Origin: an uncultured Planctomycetia bacterium
GTDB taxonomy: Bacteria; Omnitrophota; Gorgyraeia; Gorgyraeales; Gorgyraeaceae
Reading direction: 5' to 3'
DNA: 64,000 nucleotides
Assembly (NCBI GenBank): GCA_964415355.1
Contig: CAYPYS010000001.1
Coordinates: 215,399-279,398 of the forward strand
Below are positions 837-37,300 of the stretch, piece by piece (position 1 is the first letter of the stretch; every line of letters starts with the position of its first letter). Position numbers and translations under genes: made by a program. Below the pieces are notes generated by a model that was not told the origin of the DNA, searched no databases, and was given only the letters and a program-made list of their open reading frames with translations.

Positions 837-873
837 TAACTTTACATTTCAACAACGTTAAAGTGTAAAGTTA
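837..873. repeat. PIE copy 1 (37-bp imperfect palindrome TAACTTTACATTTCAACAACGTTAAAGTGTAAAGTTA)
   Basis: Read directly. It lies between the ychF-like stop (871-873, TAA = rc of the element's terminal TTA) and the purH start (819). The arms TAACTTTACA and TGTAAAGTTA are complementary. Confidence 0.9.
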
Positions 874-5248: not shown

Positions 5249-5285
5249 TAACTTTACATTTTAACATTGTTGAAATGTAAAGTTA
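5249..5285. repeat. PIE copy 3 (TAACTTTACATTTTAACATTGTTGAAATGTAAAGTTA)
   Basis: Read directly. The RND gene stop (5283-5285) lies in its right end. The coiled-coil gene start (5223) is 25 nt beyond its left end. Confidence 0.9.
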
Positions 5286-8492: not shown

Positions 8493-8504
8493 AGTAACTC
8501 TTTG

Positions 8505-8550
8505 TCATTCCCGCGAAGCTTGTCCCCGTGAAAACGGGGAGCGGGAATCC
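8505..8550. repeat. Nested hairpin GTCATTCCCGCGAAGCTTG-TCCCCGTGAAAACGGGGA-GCGGGAATCC (family B) in the 5' leader of RND gene 5283..8492
   Basis: Read directly. The outer stem is ATTCCCGC/GCGGGAAT. The inner stem is TCCCCG/CGGGGA with a TGAAAA loop. Confidence 0.8.
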
Positions 8551-8560
8551 ATATCTCGCG

Positions 8561-8597
8561 TAAGTATACATTTTAACGTTGTTGAAATGTATACTTA
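8561..8597. repeat. PIE copy 4a, GTATAC-stem variant (TAAGTATACATTTTAACGTTGTTGAAATGTATACTTA), first of a tandem pair
   Basis: Read directly. Both arms carry GTATAC in place of CTTTAC/GTAAAG, a compensatory double change. Confidence 0.9.
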
Positions 8598-8599
8598 CG

Positions 8600-8636
8600 T
8601 AACTTTACATTTTAACAATGTTAAAGTGTAAAGTTA
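8600..8636. repeat. PIE copy 4b (TAACTTTACATTTTAACAATGTTAAAGTGTAAAGTTA), second of a tandem pair
   Basis: Read directly. The stop of RND gene 8634..12437 (TAA) lies in its right end. Confidence 0.9.
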
Positions 8637-12437: not shown

Positions 12438-12459
12438 TATTCACTTTAAATTAATCTCC

Positions 12460-12496
12460 TAACTTTACATTTCAACAACGTTAAAATGTAAACTTA
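12460..12496. repeat. PIE copy 5 (TAACTTTACATTTCAACAACGTTAAAATGTAAACTTA)
   Basis: Read directly. It lies between the adaptor-gene stop (12504-12506, 8 nt away) and the RND start (12437). GGAG is 10 nt upstream of that ATG. Confidence 0.9.
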
Positions 12497-12503
12497 GGGA
12501 CAC

Positions 12504-13685: not shown

Positions 13686-13698
13686 AACCTTTCCTTAT

Positions 13699-13721
13699 GT
13701 CATTCCCGCGCAAGCGGGAAC
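13699..13721. repeat. Hairpin GTCATTCCCGCG-CAAG-CGGGAAC (family B) in the 5' leader of the adaptor gene
   Basis: Read directly. Stem TCCCGC/GCGGGA with loop GCAA. Confidence 0.8.
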
Positions 13722-13723
13722 CC

Positions 13724-13760
13724 TAAGTATACATTTCAACAATGTTAAAATGTATACTTA
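13724..13760. repeat. PIE copy 6, GTATAC-stem variant (TAAGTATACATTTCAACAATGTTAAAATGTATACTTA)
   Basis: Read directly. The TolC-like gene stop (13758-13760) lies in its right end. Confidence 0.9.
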
Positions 13761-15593
13761 GGGCTTTGGGTGTGAGGCCAATCGGAAACTTCCGTCATCC
13801 AGAAACAAAGTATAGCCCGTAGCCCTGTTCAACTTTGCCAATGCCTGGTACAAGCTGCCGACCGCTTCTATATAAAATGACTTCTCGTCTGTAAGACTGA
13901 TGCGCGCCTGCATAAGCGCTGAATACGGTATTTCATTGAGCCCTGTTCGCGCTTTCGCGACCTTGAGTTCTTCTTCCCGATAATTCACCTTGTCCAGGTT
14001 TGCCCTTGCCTGTATCAAGCCTTTCTCGTATCCATAATAAGCATCTTTTATCTCTCTTATAATCGAGGCCTTTAGTTTCTTCAGCTCTTCCTTTGCCTTC
14101 TTAAATCCTATGCTGGCAGACTTTTTCTCAGAAAAACTCTGGAGGTTATCGAGGATCCCTATTTCAACAGACTGGCTCGCTGACTCTGTCCTGGTGCTTT
14201 CGCCGTGTTTCTCGCTCGTCTTGTCCTCTGTATAACCAGCGGATATTGTGTTGCCGCCAAGAGGCTTTGTCACTTTTAACCCAAGATACCAATCTTGATC
14301 CAATTCCAGCGTCTCTGTTTCAAACGCGCCGCCGGATTTTCCGTAAGAACCAGAGAGATCCACCTTAAACTGATCTTTGCTCTTCGCGATCTTCTGCCCA
14401 TAATCGTTAAAATCCACTATGTGCTTCTTTGCCTTGAAATCAGGCCTGTAACCAAACGCCAGATCCATGCACTGGTTCAATGTAACATCGACCTCTATCG
14501 CCTCAAGATAAGTAAGCTCTCCTAAGATCAAAACTTCACCCATATCGTCAGAGTCTTCGATGTTCATTGCCTGCGCGAGAGTCAATTTTGCCATGTCCAG
14601 CTCATTCTCGCTCGATGAGACCTGGTAGGCGATCTGCTTCATCTGTGAATGGACCTGCAAGAATTCTGTCTTTGTGCTCAAGCCCAGGTCAAACCTTTTC
14701 TTTGCCATCTCAAATATAGCCTCTGCGTCTTTTAATAGCTCACGCTGTTCCTTGAGGTTTATGCTCTTTACAATATATGAATAAAATGCTGTCTCTACGT
14801 CCATCCTCAAATCCTGCAATACCCTGTCATAATTTTCCTTTGAGGCCTTCATATTAGACATTGCCTGATCTACCGCATATTTAAGCCGCCAGCCATAATA
14901 CAGCGGGTGCTCGAACTTTATTTTGTACTCCTTGTCTGTGAAATCCTGGGTCGTGCCAGTAGTCTTACCTGTGGTCTCCATGTAATTCAAGCTCGCGGAC
15001 GGGTACAGCGCGCGGCGCGCCTCTCTGATCTTCAGCTCTGAGAGCTCTATTTCTTCCTTGGCTATGTCAGTGGATAAATTATTCTCAAGCGCGATATCTA
15101 TGGCCTGACCAATGTGCAGTTCCTCGGGCAGCGAGGCAGCAAACTCCGGCTCTGGTTCCCTGCTTTCAGTATAGTCCTCGCCAGGCTCTTTTTTAGGACT
15201 GGTCGCAAAGAATATCACAGGCACATCCAGCCATAGTTCTTCGGCGCCCAACTGGGCTGGAAAAGGCTTGAATCTATCTAATTTAAAAGTTGCCCTGAGA
15301 CAGATCTTGTCTAGATTTTTATTGCCTGAGGACTCAGAAACATAGATATCCCTTAGCTCACCCTTAGGAGAAAGAAGCATCTTAAGTTTCATTTCGCCCC
15401 TGGAATTAGACACAATATACCTCTCAGGCTTTCCTATGGCCTCATTTATATCCTTTGAAAGCCCAATTATATACTGTGTTATTGCTTCAATATTAGACGA
15501 AGATACTTGGTAGGCAAAAGATACAGTGCTGCATTGCGCTATAACTATAATAAATACAATAAGATACAATAATTTTCTATGCCTTGTAATCAT
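13758..15593 (-). CDS. Outer membrane efflux protein (TolC/OprM family) with an extra N-terminal ~130-aa domain
   Basis: 611 aa. It has a signal peptide (LLYLIVFIIVIAQCSTVSFA). Two TolC-like repeats with coiled-coil segments are present (...LYPSASLNYMETTGKT..., ...LTDEKSFYIEAVGSLYQALAKLNRATGY). It is the first gene of the tolC-MFP-RND-RND operon. Confidence 0.7.
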   Translation of the reverse strand: MITRHRKLLYLIVFIIVIAQCSTVSFAYQVSSSNIEAITQYIIGLSKDINEAIGKPERYIVSNSRGEMKLKMLLSPKGELRDIYVSESSGNKNLDKICLRATFKLDRFKPFPAQLGAEELWLDVPVIFFATSPKKEPGEDYTESREPEPEFAASLPEELHIGQAIDIALENNLSTDIAKEEIELSELKIREARRALYPSASLNYMETTGKTTGTTQDFTDKEYKIKFEHPLYYGWRLKYAVDQAMSNMKASKENYDRVLQDLRMDVETAFYSYIVKSINLKEQRELLKDAEAIFEMAKKRFDLGLSTKTEFLQVHSQMKQIAYQVSSSENELDMAKLTLAQAMNIEDSDDMGEVLILGELTYLEAIEVDVTLNQCMDLAFGYRPDFKAKKHIVDFNDYGQKIAKSKDQFKVDLSGSYGKSGGAFETETLELDQDWYLGLKVTKPLGGNTISAGYTEDKTSEKHGESTRTESASQSVEIGILDNLQSFSEKKSASIGFKKAKEELKKLKASIIREIKDAYYGYEKGLIQARANLDKVNYREEELKVAKARTGLNEIPYSALMQARISLTDEKSFYIEAVGSLYQALAKLNRATGYTLFLDDGSFRLASHPKP

Positions 15594-15897
15594 GTCTTAC
15601 CCTCGTGAAAAAGAAGTATACCATATGATTATATAATTGTCAATATTGGGGTTACAAAAATTTTGATACAGTTATGATACGGTTGGTTTGTTGGTGAGTC
15701 CCTTAGCATAATGAAGATATGCTAAGGCATGCTTAGGTCAGTCTTCGGAGGCCTCTTTATTTTTTGCGGACATGGTGCTTAACTTTACACTTTAACGTTG
15801 TTGAAATGTAAAGTTAAGCGAGCAAAAAATAAAAAGGAGAGAAAGCCGCTTCGCTGGGAGCGGCTGAGCGTCCTACGAAGACTGGCCTAAGCATGTC
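15594..15897. promoter_or_regulatory. Structured 304-bp intergenic region upstream of the efflux operon, with long inverted repeats bracketing a PIE copy
   Basis: Small hairpins: CTTAGCATAATGAAGATATGCTAAGG (~15700-15727), CTAAGGCATGCTTAGG (~15722-15738) and CCTAAGCATGTCTTAGG (~15885-15901). The left arm GGCATGCTTAGGTCAGTCTTCGGAGGCC (~15726-15753) is nearly the reverse complement of CGTCCTACGAAGACTGGCCTAAGCATG (~15869-15895). Inner inverted A/T runs are CTCTTTATTTTTTGCGG and GAGCAAAAAATAAAAAGGAG. A PIE sits at the centre. Confidence 0.6.
15780..15816. repeat. PIE copy 7 (TAACTTTACACTTTAACGTTGTTGAAATGTAAAGTTA; centre in flipped orientation)
   Basis: Read directly. The central 17-mer CTTTAACGTTGTTGAAA is the reverse complement of the copy-1 centre. 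Confidence 0.9.
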
Positions 15898-17139
15898 TTA
15901 GGCGTTTACGAAGACATGCCTTATTACAATACTGGCTGCACCAAGGGCAACTGAGTTCGTGCCGAGCTGGGCAGGTATTATCTTTACGATATTGGCTGGT
16001 TCCTCAAAAGCCCACTTCCTGACTGTCCTTCTCAAGGGCTCGAGAAAGAGGCTGCCAGACTTCTCTACGCCGCCTCCTATGATCACTATCTCTGGGTTAA
16101 ATAGGTTCACTAGATAGGCTACTCTAACGCCTAGATTAACAGCCGCGTCTTCCAAGAGGTCGATCGCAAGCGTGTCACCTGACTTTGCTGCCTCTATTAT
16201 ATTATCAATGCTCAACTTGTTCAAACTGCTGGCTGACTTGTCAGAAATAGTGGACTTTACACCCTTTTCTTCTATTAGCTTCCTGGCTTGGCTCACAAGA
16301 CCCAGGTCCAATCCCAACGGGAGCAAAAACGACAGATTCTTAGATAGTTTCAGGTAATCACCGTTTCTAGGATAATTTATGCGCAGCTCACCCGCGCTGC
16401 CGCTTGCTCCAGAGTATACGCCTCCTTTAATAATAATCCCACTCCCAACATCAGAATACATATAGATAACATCCTCTATATCTATCGGAAGCGCGTACAT
16501 CTTTTCTCCAAAAGCAGCGTAAGTAGCATCATTGCCAAGAAAACACGGCACGCCATACCTTTGTGAAATAAGGTCTTTTATTGTAATATAACTTGTGCGT
16601 ATGCCATGCTTGGTCGAGTCTCTTACAGTGCCCAGGGCATCGTCTATAACACCGCCTATTCCTATGCCGACTCCCTTGATCTTGTCTTTCTTAACATCCT
16701 TTTTGTTAATCAATGTCTCTATCAGATCCATGGACTTCTCTATAATCCTGTCCATGCTTTCTTTTTCCCTGTTAGTCTCGACCCTGGCTATTACCTTACC
16801 AGAAAGATCCGTGACAATGCCCGCCATGCTCGCGCCGCTTGCACCCATATGGCCGAGGTCAATGCCTATCGCATAACCGTTTCCGCTATTTAACTTTACC
16901 AGAGTCGGCTTCCTGCCGCCAGAAGAAGCCTCCATGCCGCTCTCTATAACAAGCCCATCCTTAATATGAGTATTTATGTAATTCGATACTGTCACTATAT
17001 TCAGGTCTGTTATCTTAGACACCTCTGCCCTGGTAATAGGCCCATTGCGACGGATCAGATCCAGTATGGAAAAATTTTTCTTCTCATGGTCCGACAATAA
17101 ATACGTTTCAAAAAGCCTGTTCTTATTAGCAGTTGGCAT
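15898..17139 (-). CDS. ROK-family transcriptional regulator (NagC/Mlc/XylR-like; N-terminal HTH plus sugar-kinase fold)
   Basis: 413 aa. HTH: ...FSILDLIRRNGPITRAEVSKITDLNIVTVSNYINTHIKDGLV. ROK/glucokinase motifs: ...GIGIGGVIDDALGTV..., ...GGVYSGASGSAGELRI... and a C-terminal ...IIGGGVEKSG. Confidence 0.75.
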   Translation of the reverse strand: MPTANKNRLFETYLLSDHEKKNFSILDLIRRNGPITRAEVSKITDLNIVTVSNYINTHIKDGLVIESGMEASSGGRKPTLVKLNSGNGYAIGIDLGHMGASGASMAGIVTDLSGKVIARVETNREKESMDRIIEKSMDLIETLINKKDVKKDKIKGVGIGIGGVIDDALGTVRDSTKHGIRTSYITIKDLISQRYGVPCFLGNDATYAAFGEKMYALPIDIEDVIYMYSDVGSGIIIKGGVYSGASGSAGELRINYPRNGDYLKLSKNLSFLLPLGLDLGLVSQARKLIEEKGVKSTISDKSASSLNKLSIDNIIEAAKSGDTLAIDLLEDAAVNLGVRVAYLVNLFNPEIVIIGGGVEKSGSLFLEPLRRTVRKWAFEEPANIVKIIPAQLGTNSVALGAASIVIRHVFVNA

Positions 17140-17168
17140 GGCTCCCTCCTTTTTTAATTGCGCCCTTC

Positions 17169-17205
17169 TAACTTTACACTTTAACGTTGTTGAAATGTAA
17201 AGTTA
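17169..17205. repeat. PIE copy 8 (TAACTTTACACTTTAACGTTGTTGAAATGTAAAGTTA)
   Basis: Read directly. The stop of ORF 17203.. (TAA) lies in its right end. Confidence 0.9.
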
Positions 17206-19974
17206 GAAGACACCGTGATAATAGATACGCAGTATATGCTGCGTATCCAGCGTTGGGTAAAAATCTCCAAAAGGACTCATAACTATACCTGGTATAGAAG
17301 TAGAATCGATGCTGCCCTCTCCAAACTGTATTACCAGCGCCCCATATTCGGTAACATTGTAATCCAGCTCCATAAATACATTGTGATGTTTCTCGTATTT
17401 CAAGTCTCCGCTTGTATTTAATCTATATAAGTTGTACGCCCTTGAAAAGGTATATTTCAGAAACCCTTTCAGCCTGGGATTAAATTTGTATTTAAAGGTC
17501 GTGCTAAATTGGTTCATGTTGTTATCCATGCTTTGCGCAAATTTAAAGTCGTTCTTGGTATAATCAAGATCTATGCCAAGATTTTCTAATGGCTTAAGCG
17601 AAACGCCGAGCCTGTAAATATTAAAACGCTCATATGGCGGAAGGTCAAAAAATCCCTGCGAATACAGAAAAGGTACTTCGCTTCTTATCTGCTGGCCATT
17701 TTCAGCCGCAGTGGAAAAACTGATATTATTCAAAAGCCACCTGGGATAATTATTTGTCGCGAATGTGGAATCATTTGTATTTTCGTATATGCCAAAAACG
17801 CTTATCCAGTCCCATTCCGACGGAGAATATTCTACGCCTAAAGAATATGTGGATACAGACGGGTCTTTCCCGTCCTCGATGGCGGCATTTGACTTGAATT
17901 CCCCTGTATCTGCGTCGTAGATGATAGGATCTATGCCTCCTTTGGTCTTTGGGAGGTCGTGATATATAAATAAAAACTTGGAAGTCCACTCAGGGTTGAT
18001 CTCAAGGGTATTTTCCTCTCTAAAAACGCCCTCGACATATTTATGATCAGAATCCCTCACGTATCTATAGTCGATTAAATTCTTCATCCTGCCATCCAGC
18101 GCATCTTCTTTCTCTAATCTGAAATTAACTGCATCCCTGCCCACATCCACTCCATCGCCTATTCTAAATGGCTCAATATCTTCATATCTTAAAGGATCAG
18201 AACCCCACCTGCTATATTCTATCGGTTCTTTAAAATGAATGTGCCTGCCCCAGTATTGATCGTTCCTTGTCTGCCTATAACTTGCCAGCCCCGGATCAAA
18301 ACCTTTATCCATATGCGTAAAGGCTAATCTCGCGTCGCCCCACGTCGTTCCTCTCTTAACTGCGAGATGGGCCGCGGTTCCGTTTCTCTCTGTCTCGTAA
18401 GTGCTGTCTGATCTATCATCTTCGCTCTTACTCACTGCGATCTCACCGACTATATTAGTGGTTGGATTTAAATCATAACTGGCATCTACGCCAAATACAT
18501 TATTATACGAATCAGCCTTATCGTCTTCGTAACCTATCCTGAACGTGTCTATAAAGCCTAACGTCAACCTATCATTTATAGGTGTCTTTATCCTTATCGC
18601 GCCAGGCACTGCGTTGACACTGTCATATTCCTGCCACAATCCTTTAGGCGTCGCAAAGGTCGTCTGCAGCTCGCTGCCCCCAGCAAACTCAGACGCAAAG
18701 GAAAAGCCTCTCAGGGCTGTAAGCCTTTTTAGTTCCTCGCTCTCTCTTGTAAAAGTTGACAGGTCGCTTGACCATTGTCCTCGAGTAAAAGAAGCTGCGC
18801 TTGAATTTAAATTTCCGGTCTTCCATTCATCAAGCCACGGACTCGGCTCCCAGTAGATGTGATGGTTCGAAAGCCCCAATGGGTCGTCTGAAGAAAGAGC
18901 CTGGTCTTCCAAGCCAAACAGAAACGCCCTGGCTTTATAACTATCGGTATTATAATCAAACCATAGCTCCCTCATTGGCTGAAAACTTGTATCTATATCC
19001 AGCTCGGGTATGCTAAAACTCTCTCCCCATGTATCATTGACCGAAGTAGAAACCACCCTTCCGTCAACAACCTTTAATTCAGGTATATCTATATCATCTC
19101 CATCACTCAATGTTGGTATGGTTTCGTTTATTGTGCTTCTGTTGCCTGACCAGTACTTTAACTCTATCTCGGTCGTGTCTCCAGCGCTGCCGGTTATTGT
19201 AGTCTTTTCTGTTTTTCCTACGAAACTCCAAGGGTCCACTGTGATGTCGGAATGGAAATTCAAACCTTCCTCACTTTTATTTGTATCAAACACGACCTTA
19301 AATCTGTCATACACTCTTTTATCGAATGTATTTGCCTTTGGAAATTGGTGGTCTATTACTCTGAAGTTGCGCTCGACATGGTCTGCATTTGTATCCTTCC
19401 AGATCAAATCATCGCCTGTAACGCCAAAGGCCATCTTGTATTCACCCTTTATCTCGCCGGGCGCGATATTGTCATTGAGCGCGTCGGCTATGGCTTTTAT
19501 TTTATCTTCAGAATAACCTGGCGGATACTGGTATCGCGGCTCTGTCTGTGGTTTTATCTGTGGCTGGTGGGAATATTCATATTCTTCTACAGGCTCATAT
19601 CTTTCCTCTATATGCACCGGTCTGTCAAATTCTGGATTATCGCTATACTCTCCTCTATATATAGGTTGCGGCAACGCCTCTGACTCCCTGCGCAGCTCAT
19701 CGCTTCTCTGGTAAGTATCCAGCATCCCGCGCGCGCGCAGCCTGAGCTCCGCGTTCACAAGATCCAGATACGTCTGCGCGTCAGCGTTCCGCGAGTCGAG
19801 CTCGATCGCGCGCTCGAGGATCACCTTGGCCTCGTGCAGCTTGCCGGCGCGATAGTAGTCCACGCCCCTGCTGGACAAGCCGAAGCTCACGGCAATATCC
19901 TGCTCTTGCGCAAAGCAGGGCGCTGCCGCCACTAATACCAACACTGTCACTATCGCCGCAAATTTCCTCATCAT
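17203..19974 (-). CDS. Large (~923 aa) secreted protein, putative outer-membrane beta-barrel / oligosaccharide channel; N-terminal TPR-like helix pair
   Basis: The likely start is MMRKFAAIVTVLVLVAAAPCFA (ATG 19972-19974). The track start (MLKCKLTRV) lies inside the PIE. It is beta-rich and Asp/Gly/Tyr-rich throughout. It ends in ...YYHGVF (aromatic C-terminal residue, typical of OMPs). It is adjacent to the glycoside-hydrolase genes. Confidence 0.5.
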   Translation of the reverse strand: MMRKFAAIVTVLVLVAAAPCFAQEQDIAVSFGLSSRGVDYYRAGKLHEAKVILERAIELDSRNADAQTYLDLVNAELRLRARGMLDTYQRSDELRRESEALPQPIYRGEYSDNPEFDRPVHIEERYEPVEEYEYSHQPQIKPQTEPRYQYPPGYSEDKIKAIADALNDNIAPGEIKGEYKMAFGVTGDDLIWKDTNADHVERNFRVIDHQFPKANTFDKRVYDRFKVVFDTNKSEEGLNFHSDITVDPWSFVGKTEKTTITGSAGDTTEIELKYWSGNRSTINETIPTLSDGDDIDIPELKVVDGRVVSTSVNDTWGESFSIPELDIDTSFQPMRELWFDYNTDSYKARAFLFGLEDQALSSDDPLGLSNHHIYWEPSPWLDEWKTGNLNSSAASFTRGQWSSDLSTFTRESEELKRLTALRGFSFASEFAGGSELQTTFATPKGLWQEYDSVNAVPGAIRIKTPINDRLTLGFIDTFRIGYEDDKADSYNNVFGVDASYDLNPTTNIVGEIAVSKSEDDRSDSTYETERNGTAAHLAVKRGTTWGDARLAFTHMDKGFDPGLASYRQTRNDQYWGRHIHFKEPIEYSRWGSDPLRYEDIEPFRIGDGVDVGRDAVNFRLEKEDALDGRMKNLIDYRYVRDSDHKYVEGVFREENTLEINPEWTSKFLFIYHDLPKTKGGIDPIIYDADTGEFKSNAAIEDGKDPSVSTYSLGVEYSPSEWDWISVFGIYENTNDSTFATNNYPRWLLNNISFSTAAENGQQIRSEVPFLYSQGFFDLPPYERFNIYRLGVSLKPLENLGIDLDYTKNDFKFAQSMDNNMNQFSTTFKYKFNPRLKGFLKYTFSRAYNLYRLNTSGDLKYEKHHNVFMELDYNVTEYGALVIQFGEGSIDSTSIPGIVMSPFGDFYPTLDTQHILRIYYHGVF

Positions 19975-19982
19975 CACCCTTG

Positions 19983-20019
19983 TAAGTTTACATTTCAACA
20001 TTGTTGAAATGTAAACTTA
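19983..20019. repeat. PIE copy 9 (TAAGTTTACATTTCAACATTGTTGAAATGTAAACTTA; G..C paired stem variant)
   Basis: Read directly. It is followed by a GC-rich segment CGTCGCCCGCCGCGCTACCTGCGCAGCCGCGCC (20021-20053). Confidence 0.9.
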
Positions 20020-21282: not shown

Positions 21283-21319
21283 TAACTTTACACTTCAACA
21301 TTGTTGAAATGTAAAGTTA
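21283..21319. repeat. PIE copy 10 (TAACTTTACACTTCAACATTGTTGAAATGTAAAGTTA), flanked by CCCC/GGG extending the palindrome
   Basis: Read directly. A second hairpin GGTCTGGG...TGCCGACAGGCA...CCCAGACC follows immediately (21321-21356). Confidence 0.9.
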
Positions 21320-22170: not shown

Positions 22171-24486
22171 CTACTCCGTCCATAATTCTTGATACATAAA
22201 ATATGATTTTTTCAACTGCCTCAAGAACGGACTGTGACTGCCGTCCCCTTGTCCAGCTATGCCAAGCCACTCTTCATAATTCCATCCGTCTGGAAAAGGA
22301 CCTGCCCAGTTTTTGGTTGCATCGTGCAGTAAAGGCTCGTACGCCTTCCACCACTCATCCAACCATTCAAAGTGAATACCGCCTATAGAATTGCCTATGC
22401 CCCTATGCCCTCCTGAATTATACACTATATCCTTCCAGCTCTCCTTTAGATATTCAGCCTGTCTCTCTTCTGCAACCTCTTTTGACTTACCTGACATGTA
22501 ACTCGGGCACCCATATTCAGTAATAATAACGGGCTTATCGCACGCCTTTTTCGCGTTGTTCCAAAAACTCCTCCCGAAACCATAGCTTCCTCTATATGCA
22601 TTAGCCCCATAGATATCGATGTCCGGAGCAAGCTCGCTAAACTTGTCCAGAAACAATAAATCGCCGCTACAGATCGCAACAGGATGATCCCTGTCAATAG
22701 ACTTTATCATCCTTGCGACTTCATTTGCAAATTTATAATACGCCTCGGGTTTTTTCTTCGCATTGTTCGCGACACCATAATTATTTTCATTTCCAAGCAT
22801 CCAGAACAACACATACGGCTCGTCTTTAAATTGCTCTACCATTGATCTCACGCTCTCTATCATGTTCTTTTTATGTTCCGGGTTTTCATAATCCGTGCCT
22901 TCATACCAATCCGCGCCAGACCCGACAGTGTATGCGCCCAACAGATCTCCCATTATGACCATCATGCCATACCTGTTATACAAGTCTTCCAGGAGTTCCT
23001 TATCCGAAGCATGGTGATATAGCCGCATCGCATTACAGCCCATATCTGCCATCAATTGAAAATCCCCCACTGCTTCCTCGTCCGCGTCCTGCACATTATT
23101 AAAATTCTTATCCACCCAGCTGTCGTAAGGCCCGTCGCTCCTTCCGTTGCCATTGCTATCTGCCTGCATCCAATCCTCTAAAGTGCCTTCGTCCGGGCTC
23201 TGTCCGATTTTACCTGGAGAATAAGCAATGCCTTTTACGATAAATGGTTTTCCTTCCAGCCTTAAGTGCCAGTGCCCGTTATTGTATTGCACGAGATCCA
23301 CCCTGCCGTCGCCAAGCTGCCTCACGACCCTGCCTGTCCTGACCGGTCTATTCTTAAACAAAGCCTTCTTTATATTATCGAAAAAACCCAGCTTCACAAG
23401 GCGGCCGGGGTCTACAAAAAATATATCATTGGAAAGGTCATTGTCAAACCCATTTTCAACAAATATCTCTGCGTCGCGCAACTCCATCTTTAACTCCGGG
23501 TGTTTTTCCAATAAAAAGTCGATCTTGTCTATAGCTACCTGCGCAATATACCAGGGCGTATGAAAATATGTCCAGCCAACTGATTTCGGGAAGTGCACAG
23601 CTATTGCGTAATATGCCTTTATTGCGTGCTCTGTGAGACCTGAACGTTCAAGCGCCATAGCTGCGTAAAAAAGCCTGACTCCCATTGGCTCTGCTGCCTG
23701 CGTCCATTTGTAAAAATTGGACTCAAGATCATCAGTATTCACAAAATCCCAATGATTACCTTCTAACCTGCCTTCCTTGCTCAGCTCTCTATAGCGCGGG
23801 TCCCACACCACCCCGGATGTATTCGGATAAATACCTTCACCTGCGGCCAGCGCCAAGCCTTCCGGGTCCTTTGCCACATACCTATATTTATCAGTGCCTC
23901 TTCCTTTAAAATATCCATATTTATTGTAGTTAACGGGAAACTCTTTGCCTGCATCATAAAGCGTGATCTTTGTCGCAGGCCTGATTATTGCAGGCGGCTT
24001 TTCTGCTTCTTTCTCGTCGCCAGCCTCGGCCTCTGTCTCTATCTTCTCGAGACTCTCCTGGCTCTTTTCCTTTACACTCCAGAACCAGCCGCGCGGATCC
24101 CAGTTCTGCGCGTATCCATACTCTTCTATCGCTGCCACAAACGCCTCTTTCGCCTCCTCTGTCTTCCCCTGCGAGAGAAAGAGCTCGCCTTGAATAAAAT
24201 AACTCGTCCCCACTGCGTTGAGCACTGCGTATTTCTCTATAGCGCCTGTCATCGGCAAGCCAGTCAGGCTCGCCTGCTCTTCTCTTGCCTCACCCGCGTA
24301 GAGCTCGATACATCTACTCGTGTAGTGAAAGGTTTTTTCAAGATCCTTTGCGCCCCAGGCCTCCCACGCGCGCATAAGCAGCTCTTTTGCAGAAAGCGGT
24401 GCAGTCTCTACAACTTCTTCAGCAGCCTGCACTGGAACCGCCATCACCATCACCAAAAATATCACAACTAAATTTATTTTTCTCAT
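22171..24486 (-). CDS. Secreted glycoside hydrolase, clan GH-A catalytic domain with N-terminal TPR-like region
   Basis: The likely start is MRKINLVVIFLVMVMAVPVQA (ATG 24484-24486, abutting the PIE). The track start is TTG inside the PIE. It has GNENNYG and VIITEYGCPS motifs. The N-terminal ~330 aa is helical and TPR-like. Confidence 0.6.
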   Translation of the reverse strand: MRKINLVVIFLVMVMAVPVQAAEEVVETAPLSAKELLMRAWEAWGAKDLEKTFHYTSRCIELYAGEAREEQASLTGLPMTGAIEKYAVLNAVGTSYFIQGELFLSQGKTEEAKEAFVAAIEEYGYAQNWDPRGWFWSVKEKSQESLEKIETEAEAGDEKEAEKPPAIIRPATKITLYDAGKEFPVNYNKYGYFKGRGTDKYRYVAKDPEGLALAAGEGIYPNTSGVVWDPRYRELSKEGRLEGNHWDFVNTDDLESNFYKWTQAAEPMGVRLFYAAMALERSGLTEHAIKAYYAIAVHFPKSVGWTYFHTPWYIAQVAIDKIDFLLEKHPELKMELRDAEIFVENGFDNDLSNDIFFVDPGRLVKLGFFDNIKKALFKNRPVRTGRVVRQLGDGRVDLVQYNNGHWHLRLEGKPFIVKGIAYSPGKIGQSPDEGTLEDWMQADSNGNGRSDGPYDSWVDKNFNNVQDADEEAVGDFQLMADMGCNAMRLYHHASDKELLEDLYNRYGMMVIMGDLLGAYTVGSGADWYEGTDYENPEHKKNMIESVRSMVEQFKDEPYVLFWMLGNENNYGVANNAKKKPEAYYKFANEVARMIKSIDRDHPVAICSGDLLFLDKFSELAPDIDIYGANAYRGSYGFGRSFWNNAKKACDKPVIITEYGCPSYMSGKSKEVAEERQAEYLKESWKDIVYNSGGHRGIGNSIGGIHFEWLDEWWKAYEPLLHDATKNWAGPFPDGWNYEEWLGIAGQGDGSHSPFLRQLKKSYFMYQELWTE

Positions 24487-24522
24487 AACTTTACATTTCA
24501 ACAACGTTAAAGTGTAAACTTA
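24486..24522. repeat. PIE copy 11 (TAACTTTACATTTCAACAACGTTAAAGTGTAAACTTA)
   Basis: Read directly. It directly abuts the GH start codon. The ABC permease start (25375) is on the other side, so this is not a stop-overlapping copy. Confidence 0.9.
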
Positions 24523-25384: not shown

Positions 25385-25408
25385 GTCATTCCCGCGAAAG
25401 CGGGAATC
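25385..25408. repeat. Hairpin GTCATTCCCGCG-AAA-GCGGGAATCC (family B; 8-bp stem, GAAA loop) in the 5' leader of the permease gene
   Basis: Read directly. Confidence 0.8.
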
Positions 25409-25409
25409 C

Positions 25410-25446
25410 TAACTTTACATTTCAACAACGTTAAAGTGTAAACTTA
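25410..25446. repeat. PIE copy 12 (TAACTTTACATTTCAACAACGTTAAAGTGTAAACTTA; identical to copy 11)
   Basis: Read directly. The stop of permease 25444..26331 lies in its right end. Confidence 0.9.
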
Positions 25447-26344: not shown

Positions 26345-26381
26345 TAAGTTTACACTTTAACGTTGTTGAAATGTAAACTTA
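26345..26381. repeat. PIE copy 13 (TAAGTTTACACTTTAACGTTGTTGAAATGTAAACTTA)
   Basis: Read directly. A family-C element follows immediately. Confidence 0.9.
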
Positions 26382-28212: not shown

Positions 28213-28264
28213 TTTCCCTCTCTTCGTAGGGGAGACTTAAGTCTCCCCTACGAAGAGAGGGAAA
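28213..28264. repeat. 52-bp perfect palindrome TTTCCCTCTCTTCGTAGGGGAGAC-TTAA-GTCTCCCCTACGAAGAGAGGGAAA (family D)
   Basis: Read directly. It is preceded by a T-run (TTTTTTTTATTTTTTTT at 28172-28190) and lies just 3' of the giant ORF. Confidence 0.85.
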
Positions 28265-28266
28265 GC

Positions 28267-28305
28267 TTAAGCATACACTTCAACATTGTTGAAGTGTATA
28301 CTTAA
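28267..28305. repeat. PIE copy 14, GCATAC/GTATAC variant (TTAAGCATACACTTCAACATTGTTGAAGTGTATACTTAA)
   Basis: Read directly. The giant-ORF stop TAA (28302-28304) lies in its right end. Confidence 0.9.
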
Positions 28306-34300: not shown

Positions 34301-37300
34301 ACTGGCCTCCCATGATGTAAAACTTACCTATATCTTTTCTCTCAGGATAGTCAGGGAACACTTTCATCATCATGTCAATGATCCCCTGGAATTTTTGTCT
34401 ATATTTATGTGGCTCGTCAGGATGACTCAGCGCAGTCACAACAGCCACATTTATGCGAAACATCAATAGTATAACTATTAATGCCGCTAATAGGCCCTTT
34501 TTCAAAACACTGCCGCCCTGTTTATATAATGTGCCATCGCCGTCAAGAGTAACTAATTTTGGTCCTCTGGCAACAATTTTTCTCAATAGGAATTTCACTG
34601 TTGCCGCAAGAGGAGGCGAATGGAACATGCGGGCCAGGTATTTTAATATGCCGGATTTGTAGATAAGGTATGCGATTAGTAATAAAACAACGACTGTCAT
34701 TGCGAGAAGCAACAACGGCGAAGCAATCTCTAACTTTACATTCCAACGTTGTTGAAGTGTGAAGTTAAAGAGTAAAAACATAGGCATGGACATGGAGCTG
34801 CCTGGCCCATGAGTGTCTCTTTTTGTTCTCTCAGAAACCTTAAGCCTTTCGATAATATTTTTGCGTACCGAGTCAATGTCAAAACCACTCCCCGGGCCTT
34901 CTCCTATGAATCTTTCCACAAAATCGCCGCCCATCTCTTCAGTAGAAGGAGATTTCTTACCAAAACCCCCAGCCAACTCTGGCCCTATATGCGCCAATGC
35001 CTTCTTTTGATATGATGCAGCTTCTATCTTATCTGCATCTGGTACCAGACCTTTCATTGTCACATTATCTCTAGAATAGAAATAGAAATTGAATCCACCA
35101 GCCCATGGAGCGAGATAATATAAAACAATAATCTCCACATCCTTAAGACCCTCTGATTCACTTGACAAGTCTGTTAATACACTAAGTATCATGTCTGTAA
35201 CTACATTATGAGTGGGATGACCGTCTTCTCTATGCGGCATTATTACTACAAACTGCCCTTCTTCTCTAATAGCATCTTGATAGGCTTTTATAAATTCCTG
35301 AAACCTAATCTTCAATTTTCCAGCTGCTTCTATAAGTTCCTCACGGGATGGCATTACATCTGGGCTAGGTATATCAGGAATAATATTAAGATTCTCGACT
35401 ATTACAGCGCCTTCTCTCTCGCCAGATAAAACCACGCCGGCATTTCGCGCCTCCTCCCCTCTTATCTTTATTTTAAGGCTCTTTTCATCTACATGAGGCC
35501 TTGCCCTGTCTACATCATTCAAGATTATCCCTGCTTCGCCAGCGCTGAATACCATATTAATCATTATCACCTCATTCTCTGCGCCTGCTATAGCCATGCC
35601 ACCAGCTGCAATTTCCATGTCATCAGGGTGAGGCGAAGTAAAGATAAGCGGTATTCTTCTGGTTATTCTTATAGGGATAAATCCTTCGGGGGCCTTCTCT
35701 CCTTCAAATACAATAGCATGAGGCTGTTGTGAATCTGCGAGCACGCGTTCCCCATTTTTTATCCTGCCCACAACAAATGAATGAGCATATTCATAATCCA
35801 CTGCATCTCTTTCAGGAATCAATCCGTATCTTTTACCTAGCGTAGCAGCATGCTTCATGACCCAGTGAGTAATTTTTACATATTCGGTTCGGCGCGTCTG
35901 GCTTTTATGCTTACCGACAGCCTTTTTAACTCTATCTGCGATTTTTTTGCCAAAAGTGAAAACTAGGTTTACATATGAAGGATACTCAAAAGATTCATAA
36001 TAAAAGGTATATACATCCGGATAAACCTCGGCTCTATACTCTGTGACAAGCTCTCTGTTTTCTGGCGAATATGGCATCATAATAAAATCTGGCCTATAGT
36101 CGCCTAAAATATCTCCCAAGGCCTTTGCACTGTTTAATCTATACACCCTTATTTCGTTTCCATTAAGCCTTAATGCCTCAACAACATTACCGGCAAATAC
36201 CATATAATCATTTTCTACGACTTCAAACACTGCTACTTTCTTTCGTGCAGGCAATGGACATTTATTTATAGCCTCTGGTAAGTCAGGTTTATCGCTAAGA
36301 ATCACATTGCCGGATAGAGGAGACCAGTTTGACTCAGTATACCGAAGACAATTTAGATTTGCATTAATGTCATCTCTAAGACTCCTGACTTTCAAGACAA
36401 GAGATTCATCCTCTATGTTCCTCGCCATTGCCCCTAGAGTATCAAGTAGCGTTTTCTCTAAAGCAGGGAGCTCAGCAGGAATCCTCCCTGCATGGATAAA
36501 CGCAAAGAGTCTCTGAACACTTGAGGAGGGATAGGTTTTATTACGTTTCCGCAGGTCTTCTTCTAGAGACTGCCAGATTTGTTCGCAGTCCTGTTCCTTA
36601 AATACTCCTATAGCTTTTCCAGTCTCAAAAGTCAGCTGAACCGCTTCAAGGGCTTTGGGGTATAATGGACTCTCGGGATCAAGTACCATCCCTACCCAAA
36701 GTTCTTCAATCCTACGCAACAAACCATCTTCTTTAAAAAGATTGGCAAGCGGCACGACATTGACTGCCATAGTAACCATGGCCTTCACCCACTCATGCCA
36801 AATTGAATCAGCATTCTTGCCTGCATCCTCTGGAATGATTGCAGGATAATCTCTTTCTTCAAGGATTTCTTTAACGCGCCTTCGCTGAGCAATGTTATTA
36901 ATGCCCAGTCCTGCTGCTGCCAGAATAACCTTACCCTTCTTGCCTGGTATATAGACCATTGTCGGAACACCGTCTATTTCTCGCTCTTCTCTCCTGCCAG
37001 ATTGTCCTACAATTCCCCGAATCACGCATCCAGCAATGGATGTTTTGGTCTCATCAGACAATGTCTTTAACTGCTTTGAAGCACAGATTCTTTTAAATAA
37101 AGTATCAATAAACTCCTTATAATAAATCCCATTGCTCAAAAGAATAAACTTTGGTACCAATAGTTGAACGTCACCTTCGATCGCAAAATATCCCTGCCCT
37201 GCCATCACTTCTAAGAGCTCTACTAGTTCGTCCATGAAGCTCGTTAGTATCTTATCTGTATGCGGCGCAACAAAGACAACATCAGGGAGATGTCTGCTGC

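Follow-up and report, generated by a model that had tools for sequence, protein, structure and literature searches.

A PIE-centred long imperfect palindrome in the spacer between a ROK gene and an efflux operon of an uncultured Omnitrophota bacterium

Introduction

Between a ROK family gene and an efflux operon encoded on the same (minus) strand, the 64,000-nt stretch of DNA analyzed here (hereafter the window) carries a gap of 304 bp, running from the ROK stop codon to the ATG of the OEP/TolC-like gene (15594-15897), that is rich in inverted repeats. How did these repeats arise, and do they serve to regulate the operon, to move as an element or to shape a transcript end? An earlier note on this DNA described long inverted repeats bracketing a repeat termed PIE, together with small hairpins, and proposed that the region was either a composite MITE or a complex operator/promoter of the efflux genes. 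The setting it gave was accurate: the neighboring genes are indeed a ROK gene (PF00480) and, all on the minus strand, an OEP (TolC-like, PF02321)-MFP-RND-RND series, and the gap is the longest of the 18 gene junctions between 1 and 28.3 kb, the runner-up measuring 189 bp.

Every homologue of the ROK protein at 69-80% identity carries the label Candidatus Omnitrophica or Omnitrophota, and the name given is ROK family transcriptional regulator; judged by sequence, the source organism is an uncultured member of the Candidatus Omnitrophota. The ROK gene carries a helix-turn-helix domain, and the gene order ROK-OEP-MFP-RND is kept in Omnitrophota relatives.

Results

Anatomy and folding of the spacer

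A repeat finder identified three nested inverted repeats and two perfect small hairpins in the spacer, and about 180 bp (15722-15901) form a single long imperfect palindrome with the 37-bp PIE at its center (Table 1). Long inverted repeats around a PIE are therefore present as described, according to both the repeat finder and the folding z-scores, and so are the inner inverted A/T runs. The outer arms, previously given as about 28 bp, are inverted as claimed and in fact measure 35 nt, with the ROK stop codon inside; they are 86% complementary, differing at 5 of 35 positions. The central palindrome itself reaches slightly beyond PIE, to 15777-15819 (15777-15796 against 15800-15819, 20 nt, 90% complementary). 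Read along the gene strand, the elements follow each other in the order stop codon, proximal arm, GC hairpin, U-rich tract, PIE and distal arm. Three small hairpins of the CTTAGCAT type had been listed. Two of them, h1 and h3, are perfect, and the third amounts to the short palindrome CTAAG-N5-CTTAG that lies within the end of each outer arm (16-17 bp when read as CCTAAG-N5-CTTAGG); the CTTAGCAT 8-mer as such occurs in the window no more often than expected (4 copies versus 4.0). In h1, the final codons of ROK pair with the bases just past its stop codon, which makes h1 and the outer stem mutually exclusive.

Table 1. Positions of the features discussed in the text (window coordinates).
Feature	Positions	Strand	Remarks
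ROK family gene	15898..17139	-	413 aa; PF00480
ROK TAA stop codon	15898..15900	-	inside outer arm
OEP/TolC-like gene	13758..15593	-	611 aa; PF02321; MFP and two RND pump genes next
Shine-Dalgarno GAGGG (15604-15600) and ATG (15593-15591) of the OEP/TolC-like gene	15591..15604	-	
Outer arm, distal copy (3' arm, gene strand)	15722..15756		unique in window
Outer arm, ROK-proximal copy (5' arm, gene strand)	15867..15901		diverged orthologous copy in L064
Inner arm, A-run on gene strand	15752..15767		pairs with 15822-15837; 16 nt, 94% complementary
U-rich tract UUCUCUCCUUUUUAUUUUUUGC after GC hairpin	15822..15843	-	distal 16 nt (15822-15837) double as inner arm
PIE, 37-bp imperfect palindrome TAACTTTACA-N17-TGTAAAGTTA	15780..15816		center of structure
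Small hairpin h1, GCATGTCTT / AAGACATGC	15891-15899/15911-15919	-	9 bp, perfect
Small hairpin h3, CCTTAGCATA-N7-TATGCTAAGG	15701-15710/15718-15727		10 bp, perfect; outer arm overlapped by 6 nt
GC hairpin AGCCGCU-cccagcga-AGCGGCU	15844..15865	-	terminator-like stem; ROK-proximal half only
Lineage-specific extra segment, 215 bp	15683..15897		alignment and comparison of the 26 orthologous loci
Two operator-like boxes, CCGTATCA and CTGTATCA	15664..15682	-	11-bp period; conserved in orthologous loci
Sigma-70-type promoter of the efflux operon	15615..15643	-	TTGACA, 17 nt, TATACT, with TG

When one half of the palindrome is aligned with the reverse complement of the other, 46 of 50 positions are identical (92%) and two indels are found. 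The larger is a 34-nt segment present only in the ROK-proximal half, which holds the GC hairpin and the first part of the U-rich tract; the other consists of 8 nt present only in the distal half.

The folding of the region was compared with that of shuffled sequences. As RNA, 15594-15925 gives z-scores of -9.4 on the minus strand and -9.2 on the plus strand; as DNA, 15700-15922 gives -11.8. In neither case was the native value equalled by any shuffle, and the nested inverted repeats are genuine and far beyond chance. The GC hairpin taken by itself has an ordinary fold energy (-11.5 kcal/mol, z of only -1.5, 19 of 200 shuffles folding as well) and is not a canonical terminator: only 4 U are found among the first 8 nt after its stem, and the long U-runs start 10 nt past it, which explains why a terminator scan made no call there. 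Searches against Rfam 15 returned no match at the gathering threshold for the window and only chance-level matches (E >= 0.5) for 15000-16500; with both thresholds blank, 6S RNA, riboswitches and retron-like RNAs are unsupported. The small open reading frames of the spacer are frames of 26-36 codons without support.

Assembly and amplification are known to yield chimeras in the form of long inverted repeats, and the resemblance raises the possibility of a fold-back artefact produced by amplification or by the assembler. The same 401 nt, however, recur without a difference in six contigs, assembled from six samples under two listed sources (JGI and ENA), with the spacer 100% identical across all six strain-level contigs; normal genes lie on both sides, and the two halves are not exact copies, with 8% divergence and two indels between them. 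On the strength of the six identical assemblies we exclude an artefact, to which we assign a negligible probability.

The conserved regulatory block lies outside the inverted repeats

In order to separate inherited regulatory DNA from lineage-specific sequence, 26 orthologous ROK-to-OEP spacers of Omnitrophota, the window's own among them, were compared. On the gene strand they share a block that starts with CCGTATCA-N3-C(C/T)GTATCA, continues with a variable stretch of 0-25 nt and ends with TTGACA-N14-TGATATACT, about 12 nt, AGGAG and ATG, so that boxes, -35 element, extended -10 element and Shine-Dalgarno sequence are common to all 26 loci. In the window this block occupies 89 bp (15594-15682). 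The -35 hexamer TTGACA lies at 15643-15638 and the extended -10 element TGGTATACT at 15623-15615; the promoter is the top sigma-70-type site in 1-20 kb (11 of 12 positions plus TG), and the operator-like boxes are the sole such pair in the window. From its sequence, the efflux operon is credited with a conserved promoter of its own and an operator-like direct-repeat pair.

In nine loci, which we take as the base state, the conserved block starts 2-5 nt past the ROK stop codon, and the distance from the stop codon to the -35 element is 30-45 nt in the base state versus 257 nt in the window, the largest value among the 26. Because the block is conserved and begins right after the ROK stop codon in the base state, the 215 bp interposed in the window are a lineage-specific extra and not part of the operator/promoter. 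The fill between the ROK stop codon and the boxes is non-homologous across lineages. Nine of the 26 loci have no hairpin at this junction; the site is empty in distant relatives (L061, L062, L063, L065, L077 and others), other and different hairpins occur in L066, L067, L068, L070, L071 and L081, and PIE-like palindromes occupy it in L079, L084 and L092.

These comparisons bear directly on the proposal that the spacer is a complex operator/promoter. That proposal holds insofar as promoter and boxes do lie within the spacer; it fails for the hairpins, since promoter and boxes fall outside every inverted repeat that had been named, and the hairpins are unconserved in the other 25 loci. A more specific version would make the CTAAG/CTTAG-CATG motifs an operator array through which ROK, or another dimeric DNA-binding protein, controls efflux. 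The palindromic ends of both outer arms and the CCTTAGCATA-N7-TATGCTAAGG arrangement of h3 have the appearance of such sites, and they adjoin a gene with a helix-turn-helix domain. Yet the motifs are missing from 25 of 25 other orthologous spacers, in which ROK is 69-80% identical and the promoter nearly invariant, and they lie 80-260 bp upstream of the promoter, whereas the candidate operator that is conserved, the CCGTATCA pair, sits beside the -35 box; the lack of CTTAGCAT enrichment weighs on the same side. Given that the hairpins are missing or replaced by unrelated sequence in these relatives, a conserved role as ROK operator is very unlikely, and we consider the operator array as a whole highly improbable.

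The outer arms are single-copy in the DNA searched and inherited at the site

The earlier note had suggested searching the genome for the arm sequence as a test of the MITE interpretation. With the outer arm as query, no second copy was found in the 64-kb window or in a further 9 kb of this genome, which together amount to about 73 kb and probably to a few percent of the genome. Nor was there any copy in 663 kb of other Omnitrophota loci except at the orthologous site of L064, and matches were absent for the arm in IMG/VR viral contigs and, by BLAST, for the insert in plasmid and phage sets. A metagenome scan with the arm core gave zero matches; it missed the source contig too and hence carries no weight. 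No target-site duplication is found at 15721/15722 and 15901/15902 (flanks ...GATATG|CTAAGG and CTTAG|GCGTTT), and the ends of the 215-bp segment (TAA|GACATG ... AACCAA|CCGTATCA) share no direct repeat.

L064, from Logan run SRR28106056, is a relative with a 95% identical ROK protein (91% nucleotide identity). It carries a diverged ROK-proximal arm at the same position (AGCAATACTTAAATCAGTCTTCGGAG), with TAGAGCAATACTTAAATCAGTCTTCGGAG where the window has TAAGACATGCTTAGGCCAGTCTTCGTAGG; its contig ends soon after this arm, before the rest of the structure. The presence of this diverged copy in place indicates that the arm was inherited at the site and not freshly transposed. A search with the N-terminal part of the OEP protein for the full spacer of this relative yielded only three distant matches.

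Could the structure nonetheless be a low-copy MITE of about 180 bp (215 bp with h3) that transposed into the spacer, with 35-nt terminal inverted repeats and PIE inside? Parts of the composite-MITE proposal stand: terminal inverted repeats are present, PIE is multi-copy, and the DNA is extra relative to the orthologous spacers of most relatives. Several small-hairpin repeat families occur in these genomes, the insert of L067 recurs in the MAG locus L017 (98% over 51 nt), and a second module, TCATTCCCGCGNAAGCGGGAA, is found twice in the window. A 10-mer of the arm, TCTTCGTAGG, is also present in both arms of an intergenic palindrome at 28213-28264; this is marginal (p of about 0.01, with counts not above those of shuffles), and since only this one 10-mer is common to them, kinship of the arms with the 28.2-kb palindrome was rejected. 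The multiple copies and target-site duplication of a MITE, in contrast, are not seen in the data searched, the arms overlap the ROK stop codon, and the arm is orthologous and diverged in L064. Transposition of a MITE thus appears unlikely to us. As for other sources of the arm sequence, its similarity to the 3' coding end of ROK (AGGCATGTCTTCGTA versus AGGCCAGTCTTCGTA) is marginal (p of about 0.02) and a hint at most.

PIE belongs to an abundant family of intergenic hairpin repeats

The element at the center of the palindrome is common in the window. Its half-site occurs 29 times versus 5.3 expected, 15 full copies are found in the first 35 kb, and PIE is present at 12 of the 18 gene junctions of the first 28 kb, or at 13 if a diverged copy at 28268-28304 is included. 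At some of the same efflux-operon junctions, relatives have genes that overlap. An exact-pattern scan of species-representative genomes placed nearly all of the matches listed in a single MAG, CAYULJ01 ("uncultured Planctomycetia"), which accounts for more than 110 copies among them and has no DNA-level similarity to the window besides PIE. Nearly all the listed copies are extragenic, and 104 of 114 sit between co-directional genes. Comparison of these 104 shows that the element is really about 41 bp long, CTTAAGTTTACACTTTAAC-ATT-GTTGAAGTGTAAACTTAAG, that in 34 of them the upstream gene takes its stop codon from the element's first TAA, and that the next start codon usually follows 10-25 nt after it.

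Paired positions of PIE co-vary among copies through compensatory changes: positions 4/34 are G-C in 81 copies, C-G in 18 and unpaired in 5; positions 7/31 are T-A in 92 and C-G in 11; and positions 6/32 are T-A in 99 and A-T in 4. From its abundance, its extragenic sites and these compensatory changes, PIE is best described as a REP-like hairpin repeat. Other Omnitrophota have 37-bp palindromes with PIE-similar ends and different inner stems. A scan of viral sequences gave no match to PIE, no transposase is among the Pfam families listed for the window genes, and our literature searches returned no description of an Omnitrophota palindrome repeat family. We also considered whether PIE might be a promoter (TTTACA-N17-TGTAAA) and rejected this reading, as start codons 10-25 nt after most copies leave no room for a -10 box and a leader.

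The long flanks are peculiar to the spacer. Among 130 PIE copies, only the spacer copy is bordered by long inverted repeats (local alignment score 22.5, with the next at 12 and a median of 7), so that a long form of every PIE could be rejected. What the spacer contains, then, is an inverted duplication centered exactly on PIE, single-copy in the DNA searched and lying outside the conserved block.

Origin and present role of the palindrome

On balance, and with modest confidence, we read the structure as a local inverted duplication around PIE, neither operator nor demonstrably mobile, that is now at most a hairpin at the end of the ROK transcript. Starting from the arrangement usual in this phylum, in which the two CCGTATCA boxes and the strong sigma-70 promoter of the OEP-MFP-RND operon come 2-3 nt past the ROK stop codon, the PIE hairpin would have served as a fold-back point, with a template switch during replication copying the flank in inverted orientation. 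Judged by the pattern, fold-back at the PIE hairpin, or a switch of template there, is the most likely origin. One half would then have gained, or the other lost, the 34-nt segment with the GC hairpin, and the arms would have diverged since by about 8-14%. Where the arms differ in terms of wobble versus mismatch, two positions favor the plus strand and one the minus strand; the lack of a consistent strand bias fits neutral divergence of a DNA duplication, and the divergence of the arms looks like neutral decay of this kind. As to its present role, on the ROK transcript the GC hairpin, the U-run and the long stem may mark or stabilize the 3' end, and the hairpin module may shield the separately promoted efflux operon from read-through, making a transcript-end or insulator module ahead of the efflux promoter a probable function.

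A stronger role would be that of a selected RNA structure on a joint ROK-efflux transcript, either as a stem whose cleavage by RNase III parts the two messages or as an attenuator in which h1 competes with the long stem and ROK translation controls read-through. The folding is extremely stable, h1, the long stem and h3 cannot all form together, each excluding the others, and a hairpin just after the ROK stop codon has been gained independently in many lineages. One orthologous locus, L060, has an unrelated sequence with a similar nested layout, in which outer arms surround a canonical terminator and a half-PIE (z of -8.3); its outer stem has 3 wobbles and 1 mismatch in the sense direction versus 1 wobble and 3 mismatches in antisense, and its layout hints that the architecture may be selected rather than accidental. 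Set against this, the 5 differences among the 35 arm positions show no consistent preference for the gene strand, and it is the plus strand that folds better (-124 versus -106 kcal/mol). The six contigs show zero spacer variation from which covariation might be read, no Rfam family matches, and the hairpin-free junctions make up 9 of the 26. A selected RNA structure is accordingly an unlikely account, ranking for us slightly below the MITE.

Discussion

Comparison with known systems places the two components of the spacer in somewhat different company. PIE itself resembles the REP/BIME repeats of Escherichia coli and Pseudomonas in being a short imperfect palindrome that is present in very many copies, nearly always extragenic, sometimes in tandem (as in the copies at 8561 and 8600) and combined with small motifs at operon ends. 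REPs can act as 3'-end stabilizers or partial terminators, and by analogy PIE could do the same. It differs from them in its nearly perfect stem of 17-19 bp with a 3-nt loop, in a terminal TAA that doubles as the upstream stop codon in about a third of the copies, in its presence at two thirds or more of the gene junctions surveyed here, and in the 180-bp palindrome that is unmatched among the other copies.

The whole structure recalls the Correia elements (CREE) and NIMEs of Neisseria, which are intergenic, have terminal inverted repeats, form long hairpins and alter transcript ends. Correia elements are reported to be RNase III substrates; they measure 100-155 bp and occur in hundreds of copies with TA duplications; the spacer structure shares the intergenic location, the terminal inverted repeats and the long hairpin, but is single-copy in all data and lacks a duplication. 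Elsewhere in the window, an ATTCCC-N8-GGGAAT module beside two PIEs resembles the dRS3 pattern. As a mosaic at the edge of an operon, the spacer as a whole is comparable to BIMEs or NIMEs.

With respect to origin, the closest likeness is to quasi-palindrome extension in the Ripley model, given the hairpin at the exact center, the inverted flank copies and the 92% identity of the two halves. Classical quasi-palindrome template switching corrects a few bases, whereas the present case would require the templating of at least 50 bases on each side, and no intermediate is seen. The GC hairpin, in turn, resembles intrinsic terminators in its GC-rich 7-bp stem, its U-rich tract and its location past a stop codon and before the promoter of the next operon; it differs in the 10 nt that separate the stem from the uninterrupted U-runs and in that the stem-loop is embedded in the arm of a longer hairpin.

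The observations on PIE and on the spacer may also be joined in a broader reading, which we put forward as speculative and rather unlikely. PIE-type palindromes of 37-41 bp would then be an Omnitrophota-wide class of intercistronic hairpins, and the 180-bp structure a case in which such a hairpin has seeded a long palindrome. Hairpins of this type, bringing their own stop codon, would loop out between the stop codon and the next ribosome-binding site, and could by these two properties invade even tightly coupled operons. If this were true, the 180-bp structure would be a new transcript-boundary element caught in the act of arising between a regulator gene and the adjacent operon.

For the regulation of efflux in this organism, the candidate regulatory DNA moves from the hairpins to a plain 89-bp block whose promoter is almost invariant and whose two CCGTATCA boxes would be a sensible target for ROK or another regulator. 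The spacer itself is of little weight and ordinary in kind; its wider value lies in illustrating how operon boundaries are reshaped by the small palindromic repeats with which Omnitrophota intergenic regions are filled. Because the Omnitrophota are uncultured, their transcript ends and operon structure can be approached through hardly anything but signatures in the sequence, and here the PIE family, which overlaps stop codons, occupies most gene junctions and is conserved across species, is a more interesting lead than the spacer in which it was found.

PIE repeats at gene junctions

PIE, a multi-copy, REP-like palindrome of 37-41 bp, occurs at 12 to 13 of 18 gene junctions in the window. About a third of the copies supply, with their terminal TAA, the stop codon at which the preceding gene ends, and the next Shine-Dalgarno sequence and start codon mostly follow within 10-25 nt. 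Comparison of copies revealed compensatory changes at paired positions of the stem, and at positions 14/24 the sense strand presents U-G in 44 cases versus C-A in 18. More than 110 copies were counted, among the matches listed, in CAYULJ01, a second Omnitrophota MAG that has no other DNA similarity to the window. No published description of PIE was found in the literature searched.

Two further small hairpin repeats were observed. The first, TCATTCCCGCG(C/A)AAGCGGGAA, follows the pattern ATTCCC-N8-GGGAA, reminiscent of the dRS3 element of Neisseria; both of its window copies directly adjoin a PIE, and the module is also present in CAYULJ01. The second, GCACAGCAACTTATG...CATAAGTTGCGTGC, was identified after the ROK stop codon of an orthologous locus (L067) and at an unrelated CAYULJ01 site (L017), the two instances being 98% identical over 51 nt. 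The contig of the closest relative (L064) ends in what resembles the start of this same family.

Location of repeats and associated features (window coordinates unless a locus is named)
Feature	Position
PIE, window	837-873, 2503-2539, 5249-5285, 8561-8597, 8600-8636, 12460-12496, 13724-13760, 15780-15816, 17169-17205, 19983-20019, 21283-21319, 24486-24522, 25410-25446, 26345-26381
PIE, outside window	loci L007-L059
Diverged PIE, within giant ORF	34731-34767
Diverged PIE, end of giant ORF	28268-28304
Perfect palindrome	28213-28264
Giant ORF (- strand)	28302-63917
TCATTCCCGCG(C/A)AAGCGGGAA module	13700-13720, 25386-25406; L046 4761-4781
GCACAGCAACTTATG...CATAAGTTGCGTGC hairpin	L067 about 2315-2365; L017 3134-3184
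CCGTATCA box pair	15664-15682
Efflux gene spacers with PIE	12438-12503, 13686-13757, 8493-8633
PIE upstream of ROK, compared segments	17139-17260; L064 1-75
Nested hairpin, ROK-OEP junction	L060 6240-6390

Giant ORF and its downstream end

More than half of the window is covered by a single ORF of 11,871 codons; the Omnitrophota are known to carry giant genes. A diverged PIE, TAACTTTACATTCCAACGTTGTTGAAGTGTGAAGTTA, lies within this ORF, whose frame passes through the element without a stop, the in-frame TAA having been removed by substitutions relative to the consensus. Another diverged copy starts with the stop codon of the giant gene and is followed by a perfect palindrome with 24-bp arms, TTTCCCTCTCTTCGTAGGGGAGAC-TTAA-GTCTCCCCTACGAAGAGAGGGAAA, which has the 10-mer TCTTCGTAGG in common with the outer arm of the ROK-OEP spacer palindrome. 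An A-run and a promoter-like site are located further downstream, beyond the 28213-28304 interval.

Operator-like boxes and junction turnover in the efflux operon

Directly ahead of a nearly invariant promoter, TTGACA-N14-TGATATACT, 26 Omnitrophota loci carry a pair of CCGTATCA boxes that repeat every 11 bp, at the same relative position in the window and in the orthologous spacers (L060-L095). Most relatives carry two further boxes within the first codons of OEP (ATGCGTATCAAGCGTATCA), which the window has lost. The boxes likely constitute an operator.

The OEP, MFP and RND genes of the window are spaced 66-141 bp apart, with PIE copies in between, whereas in relatives some of the corresponding gene pairs share a 4-nt overlap: L062 shows it at both junctions, L061 and L063 at one junction apiece. 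PIE has therefore invaded junctions that are tightly coupled in other genomes.

At the ROK-OEP junction of L060 (ROK 80% identical), a nested hairpin non-homologous to that of the window (fold z = -8.3) has 22-bp outer arms, between which lie a terminator of canonical form (AAAAGCCAAAGCU...AGCUUUGGCUUUUUU) and, in addition, the half-PIE TTGTATACTTA; wobble pairs in its outer stem favor the gene strand. In L064 (ROK 91% identical at the nucleotide level), the PIE upstream of ROK is cut down to its first 12 nt, TAACTTTACAT.... While assembly collapse of the hairpin could also have produced this short remnant, taken at face value it shows that PIE-type elements are gained or lost over short evolutionary distances.
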